The position numbers and the translations under genes are program-made. Source: a virus (taxonomy: Duplodnaviria; Heunggongvirae; Uroviricota; Caudoviricetes). From it: a DNA stretch of 4,003 nt. Each line of letters opens with the position of its first letter. Position 1 is the stretch's first letter. The stretch lies in the IMG/VR virus record IMGVR_UViG_2534682255_000016; one strand, 5' to 3'. Of the stretch, positions 455 to 3,993 are shown piece by piece. The notes under the pieces are model-generated. The model searched no databases. It was not told where the DNA came from and was given only the letters and a program-made list of their open reading frames with translations.

Positions 455-2116
455 TTATATGAAAAAAACCGCATATTCTTTCTTTTTCGGTTCCGGGTTA
501 AGGGACATCAGGGAGACCGCATTGAACAGCGCCATCAGCGGGTCAATTTTTCCCCGTCCACTGGCCTGTTTGGTGATAAGAATGGCGTTACCTTTAGGCT
601 CCACCCGGGCATTGCCGACACACCAGGCCATCAGGGGCTGGTCACCATGCACCAGCACCCCTTCAGCCAGTTTGCGCTCGGTGGTTTTAATGGCCCCGCC
701 CAGTTTCCAGCCCTGGCTTATCCCCACCACAATTCCGTCGGGGATCCCGGCTTCCGCCAGTGAATCCAGAATCTGCCCCACACCTGACGGGTCAATACCG
801 ATATGATCCAGTAACTCAGCCTCATGAATACGACGCACATACTCCGCCACTTCCGCCGTGTCATCCCCGACCCGACGGACAATCGTCATGTCTCCACAGG
901 CCACAAAATCCTGAAAACGGGATGCCTCACTCTTCCGTCTGACCACCGCGGTTTCATGCGCCCAGGCATGGCCCCAGCCCAGCCATTCGCGGGTCTCCCG
1001 GTCACGCCCAATCACATACATCCCCAGCAGATCATCCAGCCCTCCGCCGTCAATCCCCACCGTCACCACATCAGCACGACGCAGGATATCGTCCAGGCTG
1101 ATACAACGGCCCTGCTCTTCCCAGAAATCAGCCCCCGCCCAGCGGTCAGAGCGCAGGGCAAGACCAATTTCCACATTGGCGTGTTTTGACATGAACCCCC
1201 GGAATGTCTCTTCACCGGCTTCCCGGGCTTTACGGTACTCCCGGTACAGAAAAGCCTCATCCACCGAATAACCGAGATTCGGATTGACCATGGCGAGGTT
1301 TTCCATCAGCAGGTGAGCCCCGCTTTCCACCATTTCAGGAGGGTGTTCAAATATCACCGGCAGAAAATGCGGATCATGAATTTTGCCGTCACGGACATCC
1401 CGGGCGTACTGCAGTTTCTGTCTGAACACCCCGGCTGGCGGCTCATTCGACTGGGTGGTCGTATACACCACAAACCCTTCCGGGCGGGAGGCAAGGCCGC
1501 CTATGGCTTCACGTAACATGTCCTCCGCTTTGTACTGCTTGCCAAATAACCACAGTTCATCAATCAGCGTCCCCACGGACTTGATACCGGATACCGTATT
1601 CGGATCGGCAGCCACCACCTTAAGGGTGGTGTCCGTCACCCTGTGGGTGATGGTCCGGATATGTGTCTGCACCTGACAGAGGTCATCCAGATCATCGTCC
1701 CGTCGTACCATATCCCTGGCAGGGTTGAAGGCGTTAGCCGCCACCTCCACGGTCGGGGCCAGAATGGTGTAGCCCGCCGCCTGCCGCCAGTTCAGTAACA
1801 GCGCCGTCATCATGATCCCCGCGGCCAGCGTGGACTTACTGTTTTTCTTGGGGATAAGGATAAACACTTCCTTGATATGGCGAACACCGGTCTGCGCATC
1901 GTAGGAGCCAAACAGGGCCGCCACCAGGTCAAACACCCACGGTGCACAGGACTCCCCGAATGTCGGGCTACCCGGTGCATCCACAATTCGCAGTTGTTTA
2001 AAAATCGCCAGGGCATGTGCAGCCTGGTCCGGATAAATCGGAGCCGGAATAATCGACAGCCCCTTTTTCAGGCGCTCTGCCCAGTCCGGACATGCCGTGC
2101 TCCATACAGGTATCAT
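455..2116 (-). CDS. terL: Phage terminase large subunit (TerL), Terminase_1/HK97-like family
   Basis: 553-aa ORF. The N-terminal half has a P-loop-like ILIPKKNSKSTLAAGI (compare PRKNGKST in this family). The C-terminal half has a nuclease-domain-like VVTVGIDGGGLDDLLGMYVIGR. Size is typical for TerL. ATG at 2116..2114 is preceded by GAGGAAAG and overlaps the TerS stop as ATGA. Confidence 0.9.
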   Translation of the reverse strand: MIPVWSTACPDWAERLKKGLSIIPAPIYPDQAAHALAIFKQLRIVDAPGSPTFGESCAPWVFDLVAALFGSYDAQTGVRHIKEVFILIPKKNSKSTLAAGIMMTALLLNWRQAAGYTILAPTVEVAANAFNPARDMVRRDDDLDDLCQVQTHIRTITHRVTDTTLKVVAADPNTVSGIKSVGTLIDELWLFGKQYKAEDMLREAIGGLASRPEGFVVYTTTQSNEPPAGVFRQKLQYARDVRDGKIHDPHFLPVIFEHPPEMVESGAHLLMENLAMVNPNLGYSVDEAFLYREYRKAREAGEETFRGFMSKHANVEIGLALRSDRWAGADFWEEQGRCISLDDILRRADVVTVGIDGGGLDDLLGMYVIGRDRETREWLGWGHAWAHETAVVRRKSEASRFQDFVACGDMTIVRRVGDDTAEVAEYVRRIHEAELLDHIGIDPSGVGQILDSLAEAGIPDGIVVGISQGWKLGGAIKTTERKLAEGVLVHGDQPLMAWCVGNARVEPKGNAILITKQASGRGKIDPLMALFNAVSLMSLNPEPKKKEYAVFFI

Positions 2117-2676
2117 CCGCTTTCCTCATTCTGGTTATTCACCACCAGCCGGGGAGGTGGTGGCACCGCAAAACGGTTAGCCGCTTTTTTCGCGGCATCA
2201 CCTTTTGCCGATTTTTTACCGGCATCGCCTTTTTTATGGTGTGTGAACTGCGCCAGTCGCCAGGCCGCATCCAGTGCCAGTTTCGGGTCAATTATCAGGT
2301 TTTCCACCAGGATCTGCCCCATCGCTTTCACCGGATCGGGAAGACCATCCTCCATATATTCAATACCATGAGATATCACCGCGGGCGGAGGCATCTCCGG
2401 ATTTTTTTCGTCCGGCTGTGGTATTGCAGCCACCTCACGGCGACGGGGTTTATCCTCCTGCTCTGATTTTTTCTGCCGGTAAACAGGAACCTCATCCACC
2501 TCCACCGTCTCGCATTGTTTACGGGCTATAAACGCAAGCACCTCAGGATCTTTTGCCAGCTGCGAGCCTTTAACCCTGGCGGTCTTCGCCGAATAACCGG
2601 CGGCAATGGCTGACGCTGTTTTGTTTTTCCCGGACATGAGCGCCAGCGCAAATTTTCGTTTTTGCGTTGTCAGCAC
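2113..2676 (-). CDS. terS: Phage terminase small subunit (TerS), P27/Terminase_2-like family
   Basis: 187-aa ORF. The N-terminus LTTQKRKFALALMSGKNKTASAIAAGYSAKTARVKGSQL matches the conserved helix-turn-helix region of P27-type small terminase subunits (..KQ..F..EYL...N.TQAAI.AGYS.KTA). The start codon is GTG (2676..2674), checked by hand, with a strong SD GGGAGGAGG at 2687..2679. It sits immediately upstream of TerL and overlaps it by 4 nt. The C-terminus is K/A/G-rich followed by PPPP. Confidence 0.85.
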   Translation of the reverse strand: MLTTQKRKFALALMSGKNKTASAIAAGYSAKTARVKGSQLAKDPEVLAFIARKQCETVEVDEVPVYRQKKSEQEDKPRRREVAAIPQPDEKNPEMPPPAVISHGIEYMEDGLPDPVKAMGQILVENLIIDPKLALDAAWRLAQFTHHKKGDAGKKSAKGDAAKKAANRFAVPPPPRLVVNNQNEESG

Positions 2677-2965
2677 AGCCTCCTCCCGGGTCCAGAACGC
2701 ACTCAGCCGGGTATGGTTCAGCCCATTTTTCCCGGCGTCTCATGCCGCAAATGTTAACTGCTGCCTGGTTAACATTTGCTGAAAAAGCCTGTTAACATTT
2801 TTTCCGCACAACAAACTGAATAATAAAGATAAAAACCGCAAAAATGCCCGGGCAGCCAGTTAACATGTTAACTGCCCTGAAACGGGAATTTTTTCTCTGC
2901 GTGAGAGGGGGCGCGGTGTCCAGGGCGATCGTTTTTTTTCGCCGGATGATCCCCCCCGGGTCTGG
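2677..2965. other. Candidate cos region (cosB-like repeat cluster plus GC-rich cosN candidate) between HNH and TerS
   Basis: 289-bp non-coding gap lying between an HNH endonuclease gene and the small terminase gene, which is where cos sits in HK97-like phages. It contains five GTTAAC-core palindromic repeats (2749..2875), an A-tract-rich stretch (2811..2845) and a GC-rich block with homopolymer runs (about 2895..2960). This is a functional inference; the nick site is not identified. Confidence 0.4.
2749..2875. repeat. Cluster of five GTTAAC-core palindromic repeats (AAATGTTAAC / GTTAACATTT / ATGTTAACTGC variants)
   Basis: GTTAAC occurs at 2753..2758, 2768..2773, 2791..2796, 2859..2864 and 2867..2872. 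I found no other GTTAAC in the 4003-bp window. AAATGTTAAC (2749..2758) and GTTAACATTT (2768..2777, 2791..2800) are inverted copies of each other. ATGTTAACTGC is repeated exactly at 2751..2761 and 2865..2875. CAGTTAACATGTTAACTG at 2857..2874 is an 18-bp perfect palindrome. Confidence 0.8.
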
Positions 2966-3331
2966 TCACAGGCCAGTGATTCCGTCGGCCCTGAGCGTGC
3001 CATCAGGAAGCTCAGGCAACGTCGGATCAGGCATACCACTCGCCGCTTCACTCGCTGACTTCTGGCGATGGCATTCAGTACAGAGGGTCCAGAGGTTCGT
3101 CTCCTCATTACCACCACCGAACTGAAGTGCAATGCGGTGATCGAGTTCACTGTCACAAAGGTCAACCACACGACCACAGAGACAACAGTGTCCGGCATCC
3201 CTCCGCCAGATACGACGTTTGAGGGAAACCCGGGCACTGCCACTGACACGACGCTGTTCCCCCCTCAGGACATTTATCCGCCGGGTGTTCAGAGTTTTGA
3301 TTCTGCCCGGTAACGTACGAAGCACAGCCAT
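2966..3331 (-). CDS. HNH endonuclease (phage packaging-associated HNH, zinc-binding)
   Basis: 121-aa ORF with the HNH motif: HCCLCG (C-x2-C), ELDHRIAL (catalytic D-H), NEETNLWTLCTECHRQK (N...C-x2-C-H). ATG at 3331..3329 is preceded by GAGGA 7 nt upstream. Its position immediately upstream of TerS is typical of HK97-like cos phages. Confidence 0.85.
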   Translation of the reverse strand: MAVLRTLPGRIKTLNTRRINVLRGEQRRVSGSARVSLKRRIWRRDAGHCCLCGRVVDLCDSELDHRIALQFGGGNEETNLWTLCTECHRQKSASEAASGMPDPTLPELPDGTLRADGITGL

Positions 3332-3372: not shown

Positions 3373-3597
3373 ATGTCATCGAAAAACCGGCCCCGCAGAA
3401 CAACAACCCGCAACATCCGATTTCCAAACCAGATGATTGAACAAATTAACATCGCTCTTGATCAGAAAGGTTCAGGAAATTTTTCAGCGTGGGTTATTGA
3501 AGCCTGCAGAAGAAGATTAATTAATGAAAAACATGCTCAATTTGTACCCAACAAAGACAAACACGACCAGAGCACCTGTTCAGACAGGTTTACTTAA
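3373..3597 (+). CDS. Small ribbon-helix-helix-like DNA-binding protein, resembling the YlcI/DUF3950 family of lambdoid prophages (family recalled from memory, not verified)
   Basis: 74-aa ORF with a basic N-terminus (KNRPRRTTTR), then a predicted beta-strand RNIRFPNQMI and two helices EQINIALDQKG / NFSAWVIEACRRRL, the usual RHH arrangement. SD AGAGGA lies 7 nt upstream of the ATG. Two 60-nt stretches hand-counted in 3421..3540 are about 37% GC, clearly lower than the terminase genes. A hairpin terminator follows 19 nt after the stop. Confidence 0.7.
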   Translation: MSSKNRPRRTTTRNIRFPNQMIEQINIALDQKGSGNFSAWVIEACRRRLINEKHAQFVPNKDKHDQSTCSDRFT

Positions 3598-3678: not shown

Positions 3679-3993
3679 TTAGCATTTTTTTGACCGCGCG
3701 TTTCCGGACGTATTCTGTTCTCCTGTCCCTTTATATCGTCGGAATACCCGCCGCTCTTCAAATCCCATTCCCAACTCAGAATGTAGTCTGTTGACCGCTT
3801 GTTTTATTTCGGTCAGGTTCATCGGTGAAACCGGAGTCCGGCGCGCCTTACGCAAACACTCTGCTCGTTTCTGTGCCGCCACTTTTCTTTTCTGGTCATC
3901 ACTTAGCTGTACCATCACTTTTGCCCATCGTTCAGCTGCTCTCCGGTACAGTCCTTTTTTCTCCAGACATTCTGCCAGGTGATCATGTAGCAT
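3679..3993 (-). CDS. PerC-family (Pch-like) transcriptional regulator, prophage-borne
   Basis: 104-aa ORF. The N-terminal motif LAECLEKKGLYRRAAERWAKVM matches the PerC-family signature (..AE.LE.KG.WRRAA.RW..VM) as I recall it from PerC/Pch proteins. ATG at 3993..3991 is preceded by GAGG with a 6-nt spacer. Only 3 codons lie upstream before the window edge, so a longer N-terminus cannot be excluded. Confidence 0.65.
   Translation of the reverse strand: MLHDHLAECLEKKGLYRRAAERWAKVMVQLSDDQKRKVAAQKRAECLRKARRTPVSPMNLTEIKQAVNRLHSELGMGFEERRVFRRYKGTGEQNTSGNARSKKC

Follow-up and report, generated by a model that had tools for sequence, protein, structure and literature searches.

A GTTAAC repeat array beside the inferred cos site of a widespread E. 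coli prophage group is probably recognized by the small terminase

Several DNA packaging systems have been described that resemble the locus studied here. In phage lambda, cosB is built as R3-I1-R2-R1, with an IHF site among the sites for gpNu1 (PMC6739421, PMC6092414). HK97 has a single 15-bp site for the small terminase (TerS) at +15..+29 from the cut, read by an arginine clamp (PMC11331095). In SPP1 and SF6, the cleavage site is flanked by arrays of direct repeats (boxA, boxB, and boxC, bound by G1P), and a proposed model has about 100 bp of bendable DNA wrapping round a ring of helix-turn-helix (HTH) domains; the small terminases of these phages are such rings and not classical dimers, and the isolated SF6 DNA-binding domain binds pac DNA without clear sequence specificity (PMC4737164). 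Satellites are known to carry related signals. The cos-type SaPIs, such as SaPIbov5, have a helper cos site and a capsid homologue (Ccm) (PMC5052747), and E. coli PICIs of the EcCICFT073 type use the helper cosN with a different cosB and an Rpp adaptor (PMC6739421).

The 4003 bases analyzed here, referred to as the window, correspond to the packaging module, HNH-TerS-TerL, of a lambdoid/Stx-type E. coli prophage. An HNH endonuclease gene (2966..3331, minus strand) lies directly upstream of cos in an HK97-type arrangement, and is accompanied on the same strand by terS (2113..2676; 187 aa, Pfam Terminase_2, with a GTG start after the strong Shine-Dalgarno sequence GGAGGAGG) and terL (455..2116; TerL_ATPase and TerL_nuclease domains, PF03354 and PF20441). 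Just upstream of the HNH gene is a DUF3950/YnfO-family gene (3373-3597, plus strand) and, further upstream, a PerC-family gene (3679-3993, minus strand). A distant YnfO-family gene is also found in both of the satellite types described below; this family recurs near packaging regions and does not track the repeat motif. The window matches lambdoid/Stx-converting E. coli phages such as YYZ-2008, 2851, 1717, and BP-4795 at 95%–97% identity. Of 5,426 complete E. coli genomes, 1,280 contain the spacer between the HNH gene and terS, some of them as many as seven times, for a total of about 3,000 copies; in about 90 phage records it is 95%–100% identical.

Within this spacer, the hexamer GTTAAC occurs five times (starts at 2753, 2768, 2791, 2859, and 2867; span 2753-2872) and is absent from the rest of the window. 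This exact count agrees with a preliminary description of the same DNA, which had reported five copies within 127 bp and none elsewhere. Dinucleotide-preserving shuffles of the window contained 0.53 copies on average, and none of 200 reached five; for a cluster of this kind in 127 bp anywhere within 4 kb, a Poisson upper bound is about 1e-6. The hexamer is not common at a similar density in related DNA: we counted 39 per kb in the array versus 0.26 per kb in a background of 396 kb of related phage and enterobacterial DNA, with cos regions excluded, a difference of ∼150 times.

The copies share more than the hexamer. ATGTTAACTGC is an exact 11-nt direct repeat (2751-2761 and 2865-2875, 114 bp apart), and AAATGTTAAC and GTTAACATTT are mutually inverted; both forms of shared flank had been noticed before, and both are correct as described. 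The repeat unit is asymmetric and reads GTTAACAT(T/G)T. Unit 1 (2749..2758, minus strand, reading GTTAACATTT; +148..+157 from the inferred cut, for which see below) and unit 2 (2768..2777, plus strand, GTTAACATTT) form an inverted pair in which unit 1 is distal. The full arms of this pair, GCAAATGTTAAC and GTTAACATTTGC, are 12 nt each (2747-2758 and 2768-2779) and are separated by a 9-nt spacer, giving GCAAATGTTAAC-N9-GTTAACATTTGC at 2747-2779. Unit 3 (2791..2800, plus strand) again reads GTTAACATTT. Sites 4 and 5 merge into a perfect 18-bp palindrome, CAGTTAACATGTTAACTG (2857-2874; +32..+49 from the inferred cut), composed of unit 4 (2859-2868, plus strand) and unit 5 (2863-2872, minus strand); its first GTTAAC hexamer lies at +34..+39. 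Relative to the inferred cut, the hexamers begin at +34, +42, +110, +133, and +148, and the units reach +157. An AT-rich segment (2809..2836, minus strand) separates the proximal from the distal sites and contains a T-rich tract followed by an IHF-like core, ATTCAGTTTGTTG (2809-2821; +85..+97), with one mismatch to WATCARNNNNTTR. The window holds seven such one-mismatch matches to the IHF consensus versus four expected, a total not above chance. The segment is largely conserved in a satellite copy of the array and is a possible bending site.

GTTAAC is a palindromic type II recognition sequence, of the HpaI type, and the preliminary description had named a cluster of restriction or methylation targets as one alternative. 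The palindromic hexamer itself is what this explanation has in its favor. However, conservation is asymmetric and extends beyond the hexamer (GTTAACAT(T/G)T), and related lineages use the non-palindromic GTTACAC, or GTTAAA, at the same position. The explanation accounts for neither the conserved asymmetric flanks nor these lineage-specific variants, and it also leaves the fixed distance to the cos core (below) unexplained; moreover, the window contains no methylase or restriction gene. We regard it as the least credible of the explanations considered, with next to no chance of being correct.

TerS relatives from about 20 Enterobacterales genera have one common layout. The HNH stop codon is followed by a poly-G tract, about 35 variable nt, a strongly conserved block (GGACACCGCGCCCCCTCTCACGCRCAGAAAAAAT), a ribosome-binding site, and then the terS start codon, which lies inside GTAAAC-ATG-TTAAC; Salmonella phage FSL SP-016 has this layout in its short-spacer form. 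The palindrome of the window aligns with this ancestral terS start of the short-spacer relatives, and the window's lineage has about 190 extra bases ahead of its present terS start (GTGCTGACA), which hold the other three units. The conserved block corresponds in the window to a cos core (2879..2923, minus strand CTGGACACCGCGCCCCCTCTCACGCAGAGAAAAAATTCCCGTTTC) common to genera and satellites whatever their TerS type. Upstream of the cut, a poly-G(7) tract (2951..2957, minus strand) is conserved in the window's family and has an analogue in HK97: a run of seven to eight G lies about 35–45 nt upstream of the cut region both here and in HK97 (L086 677-684), and is common to the two systems although the TerS and HNH proteins of HK97 are not detectably related to those of the window.

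The cut itself was placed by homology. Burkholderia phage Bcep176 belongs to the window's TerS family and has its HNH gene at the opposite end of its record, which carries an identical 10 nt, CGCACGTTCC, at both ends; the terS-side end goes on with CTCACGCGCAGAAAA. A terminal 10-nt repeat is the signature of cohesive ends, and we therefore infer a cohesive-end segment at window 2906..2915 (minus strand CGCGCCCCCT), with +1 at 2905. Judged from these homologous sequences, packaged DNA would begin at or next to 2905 (CTCACGC...) and run toward terS. The record of Acinetobacter phage fEg-Aba01 begins at the base equivalent to 2905, as does the 41-kb metagenomic contig L109, and contig L217 begins one base upstream; among the viral contigs searched for the core, none ended exactly at the cut. 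With this placement the terS start is at +230, and the array, at +34..+157, lies between the cut and terS.

Some further features of the region concern the cut and its surroundings. An A-tract block, GAGAAAAAATTC (2886-2897, minus strand; +9..+20), is conserved in all lineages whatever their TerS type and sits roughly where the TerS site of HK97 lies (+15..+29). Short-spacer relatives have an extra copy of GTAAACAT on the HNH side of the cut (L002 2560-2567; also L005, L006, and L012), about 67 bp from the proximal one, where the window has an A-run; by analogy with pacL/pacR of SPP1, this copy may be a second TerS contact flanking the cut. Two insertion sequences were found in the region. The IS110-family element ISEc20 (L003 3275-4733) has inserted at the poly-G/C tract that immediately precedes the cos core (about window 2951-2957); in a whole group of PPompW prophages, cos and terS are thereby separated from the HNH side. 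The IS66-family element ISCro1 lies between units 1 and 2 in E. coli Ec-U3 (L088 1-1500; junction near window 2762), an insertion that removes the terS side of the prophage.

We found the array in an element that has none of the packaging genes. This element of roughly 10 kb (the clpS-cspD element) is located between clpS and cspD in E. coli 2021CK-00607 (NZ_CP104665.1; L087 1460-1740, L091 500-10400). Besides an integrase, it has genes for a RepA-type helicase, a prohead protease/capsid fusion of its own, a 93-aa protein (phrog_1561), and Icd-like and YnfO-family proteins, but no homologue of TerS, TerL, or HNH. At one end it has a copy of window 2749-2923 that is 80% identical and includes the whole GTTAAC array; about 50 complete E. 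coli genomes have this type of copy, and strain DEC9B contains both this type and the phage type. Between window and satellite (2740-2878), all 44 unit positions are identical, versus 54 of the 95 other positions (57%; Fisher p=4e-9). When 50 distinct phage and satellite copies were aligned, no variation was seen in 38 of 44 columns within the units versus 40 of 95 outside them (p=5e-7). In each of the other six unit columns, all of them in unit 1, a single sequence differs; these columns adjoin the IS66 junction in L088, which probably accounts for the differences. Moreover, the number (exactly five) and the places of the copies are the same in all 31 distinct long-spacer phage variants. The repeats are thus conserved in position, and this pattern of substitution indicates that the units are under purifying selection. 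Since a satellite without terS, needing a helper terminase, has kept the array, the array belongs to the packaging signal and does not merely control the expression of terS.

The same evidence bears on whether the repeats are mainly an operator or leader element for terS expression, for example in transcriptional or translational autoregulation. The repeats do lie within the terS leader, the element overlaps the ribosome-binding spacer and start codon of terS in the short-spacer relatives, and the one promoter-like match in the spacer is made of the repeat itself. That match is on the strand opposite terS, and no convincing promoter was found in the spacer. A terminator scan of the spacer found none, and folding of the terS leader RNA was unexceptional (z=−1.5). 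The full array is conserved in the satellite with no terS downstream, and the register is fixed to the cos core and not to the terS start: the first repeat copy begins at about +33/+34 in all lineages compared, whereas terS starts anywhere from about +39 to +230. We consider expression control improbable as the main role of the repeats. Such a role may coexist in the short-spacer relatives; it is not the main function in the window's lineage. An Rfam scan of the whole window at permissive thresholds gave only two chance-level matches, both outside the array region.

The alignment of the palindrome with the ancestral terS start raises another explanation, in which duplications of the ancestral 5′ end of terS (ATG TTA ACN GG...) left the copies behind as neutral relics. 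The palindrome is homologous to that start, units 2–4 all have ATGTTAAC(N)GGC when read in the direction of terS, and the 5′ end of terS in locus L021 agrees with unit 2 at 15 of 18 positions. Yet neutral relics are expected to decay like their surroundings, and the units are invariant while their flanks have diverged by up to 43%. Neutrality is therefore very hard to credit, even more so than expression control, although an origin by duplication is compatible with a present function of the units. A 24-codon open reading frame (MLTGCPGIFAVFIFIIQFVVRKKC; 2792-2866, minus strand) begins at the ATG within the palindrome, where the ancestral terS start lies, with a weakened Shine-Dalgarno sequence ahead of it, and would give a hydrophobic product whose tail is basic. 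Of 50 distinct variants, 41 have this frame intact; it is frameshifted in some phages and only four codons long in satellites; given the truncated and frameshifted forms, we rejected coding constraint as the cause of conservation.

A second type of satellite keeps the core and changes the repeat. The sibling satellite L333 (3446-11944, E. coli GCA_012987925.1) combines this core with two GTTACAC repeats and encodes a W-type TerS of its own but neither TerL nor HNH; compared with the clpS-cspD element, its RepA is 76% and its 93-aa protein 88% identical. This suggests that such sibling satellites redirect packaging through their own TerS while retaining the cut site of the helper. More generally, sibling satellite-like elements (L333; L092-L094; L097/L098) have their own divergent TerS (P0065 and P0054 types), a 307-aa capsid-like protein, the same 93-aa protein, and GTTACAC repeats beside the same cos core. 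We also considered the repeats as replication iterons for the satellite RepA and rejected this, as the phage array lies in a packaging module at a fixed register to the cos core; the window has no RepA-type gene, and the identity of only 76% between the satellite RepAs is not decisive by itself on the iteron idea.

We turn to the protein that may read the repeats. In an AlphaFold model, TerS has a four-helix N-terminal domain (residues 1–55, pLDDT 92–96), a disordered linker (residues 60–110), and then a helical C-terminal region. The N-terminal domain, a predicted HTH DNA-binding domain (window 2512-2676, minus strand), matches the SF6 small terminase 4zc3 in Foldseek with a TM of 0.84, an rmsd of 1.6 Å, and 30% identity, and the sequence profile of TerS matches 4zc3, 2cmp, and 3zqp. 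The residues that covary with the repeat lie in helix 33–41 (ARVKGSQLA), which by analogy is taken to be the HTH recognition helix.

Across lineages, the same core combined with a different TerS helix goes with a different repeat at the same distance from the core. Helix ...ARSKGSQL occurs with GTAAAC-AT-GTTAAC, ...ARSQGSRL with GTTAAC-GT-GTTAAC, ...AKVKGSQL with two copies of GTTAACC, ...ARVKG(W/C)QL with one to four copies of AAAAGTTACAC (the GTTACAC type), ...AMQQGAKL with three copies of AAAAGTTAACTTTT, and ...ASATGSRL with TTGTTAAA; the TerS of fEg-Aba01 is found with three copies of AAGTTAAA. One GTTAAC of the short-spacer form overlaps the Met-Leu-Thr codons of terS and could reflect coding constraint, so we retested the covariation on the noncoding proximal element only. 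Of 46 distinct loci with an S-type helix, 45 had RTWAAC, and all three loci with a W/C-type helix had GTTACAC, although the W/C class consists of three distinct loci, perhaps from a single clade, and the counts are not independent events. The repeats thus covary with the N-terminal domain of TerS. Locus L098 has the architecture of the window with the other motif (GTTACAC type): in its 221-nt spacer, a proximal copy is followed by an AT-rich center, where an IHF-like core is found, and by distal copies, among them an inverted pair. The HNH protein, by comparison, is 60%–64% identical to that of the window in the GTTAAC and GTTACAC classes alike, and in other lineages no homologues of PerC or of the window's DUF3950 protein were found near the array, which speaks against an RHH or PerC-like reader, the other alternative suggested earlier. 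Among the proteins compared, the DNA-binding domain of TerS alone tracks the repeat.

Taken together, the GTTAAC cluster is probably a cosB-like part of an HNH-dependent (HK97-style) cos, functioning as an array of recognition sites for the HTH domain of TerS. The array is most likely the address label beside the cut site that the small terminase reads for packaging. TerS had been the leading candidate in the preliminary description, and both positional conservation and helix covariation support that choice, with physical binding of the repeats by TerS inferred from these sequence patterns. The same description spoke of repeated binding sites of a dimeric protein: repeated TerS sites are supported, but the dimeric state is not established, the SF6/SPP1 relatives being rings (PMC4737164).

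Some observations count against a TerS array. The centre-to-centre spacings of the units (8, 15, 23, and 68 bp) are no simple multiples of a helical turn, and non-specific pac binding by the isolated SF6 domain (PMC4737164) points in the same direction. The position equivalent to the HK97 TerS site is occupied here by an A-tract that is the same whatever the TerS type; the contacts of TerS may therefore extend beyond the repeats, or the repeats may have another reader. The repeats could be part of cos and be read by a host nucleoid protein or by the phage HNH or TerL. In favor of this, the array adjoins the cut site, at which both TerL and HNH have to act; there are AT-rich flanks as well as an IHF-like core; and an isolated TerS domain of the SF6 type binds DNA non-specifically (PMC4737164). 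On the other hand, the repeat differs between lineages in the same hosts while the core is constant, and different motifs in elements of one species are not expected of a host protein. HNH is equally similar (about 60%–64%) in phages of the GTTAAC and GTTACAC types, and the satellite that brings TerS only, without HNH or TerL, has an altered repeat. Another reader is accordingly unlikely, though it is the strongest of the competing explanations.

If TerS does read the array, packaging could proceed as follows. TerS oligomers on concatemeric DNA would bind the proximal palindrome (+32..+49) and the three distal units (+110..+157). The AT-rich segment would let the DNA bend or wrap, possibly with IHF, allowing cooperative engagement of the sites. 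TerL and HNH would thereby be placed on the adjacent core, where staggered nicks 10 nt apart (2906-2915) would create the cohesive end, and packaging would run from the cut through the array toward terS.

This arrangement resembles lambda cosB (R3-I1-R2-R1, gpNu1) in having several short TerS elements between the cut and terS (PMC6739421, PMC6092414). The likeness extends to the order of elements, with a near-cut site, an AT-rich/IHF-type segment, and further sites including an inverted pair, all on the side that is packaged first. In spacing, the comparison with lambda cosB concerns an array of roughly 120 bp. In contrast to lambda, the window has a TerS domain of the Terminase_2/SF6 type instead of the winged helix of gpNu1, its cos lies next to an HNH endonuclease gene, and the IHF site is a weak match to the consensus; the cos core is presumably unrelated to the lambda cosN sequence. 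Given the different TerS type and cut site, the array would work like lambda cosB, by analogy, while standing outside that homologous family.

The locus is like HK97 in its HNH-cos-terS-terL order, in having the same TerL family, in the upstream poly-G tract, and in a GC-rich cut region (ACCGCCGCC versus ACCGCGCCCCC). Both have an A/T tract just after the cut (a T-tract in HK97), and the cohesive end of roughly 10 nt in HK97 has a putative counterpart here (PMC9410871, PMC11331095). HK97 has its terS at +50 and one TerS site, whereas the window has five units located further from the cut, from +34 to +157. No sequence similarity was detectable between TerS or HNH of HK97 and the window proteins (BLASTP versus HK97 gp1, E=1.1), and we rejected HK97 as a homologue: its layout is analogous, but these proteins are not detectably related. 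The closest solved relative of the window's TerS DNA-binding domain is instead found in the SPP1/SF6 pac system (TM 0.84). That system differs in packaging by headful (pac), in working without HNH, and in having repeat sequences unrelated to those of the window. The window's family does not fit the headful type, with defined cohesive ends, as judged from the 10-nt terminal repeat of Bcep176, and an HNH gene beside the site.

The two satellite types also have parallels. Like the cos-type SaPIs (SaPIbov5), the clpS-cspD element has a helper-type cos and its own capsid/protease protein without terminase genes; it differs in host, proteins, and cos sequence, and mobilization of the E. coli element is putative. 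Satellite L333, like the EcCICFT073-type PICIs, keeps the helper cut site and changes the TerS-specific part of cos. It differs from them in using its own TerS paralogue with GTTACAC and no Rpp adaptor, and its cos is of the HNH type and not of the lambda type.

These comparisons allow a bolder proposal, which we put forward tentatively and consider somewhat short of an even bet. The array may serve as a modular "packaging address," distinct from the cut site and read mainly through one position of the TerS recognition helix. By a similarly tentative code, ARVKGSQL would go with GTTAAC and ARVKG(W/C)QL with GTTACAC, and two satellite families would exploit this code in opposite ways. Conceivably, one of them copies the five-site address of its helper, and the other keeps the cut site and carries a re-coded TerS together with a re-coded address.

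The open-access literature searched on GTTAAC in connection with terminase and cos, and on satellites of this kind, gave no description of the array or of the cos site. The kind of signal is known; for this very common E. coli prophage group it is apparently undescribed. The module is found in about a quarter of complete E. coli genomes (1,280/5,426) and in many Shiga-toxin-converting phages, and, being so widespread, its cos site governs which DNA moves in pathogenic E. coli. A defined cut region together with a TerS address provides a sequence signature for finding satellites that ride on these phages, and the pairing of TerS residue 38 with the GTTAAC or GTTACAC repeat is a testable specificity rule. 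The locus also offers a multi-site counterpart to the single-site HK97 model of HNH-dependent cos packaging. If the address is indeed modular, the packaging specificity of Stx-type prophages would be predictable from sequence and could be reprogrammed by a single substitution and a repeat swap.
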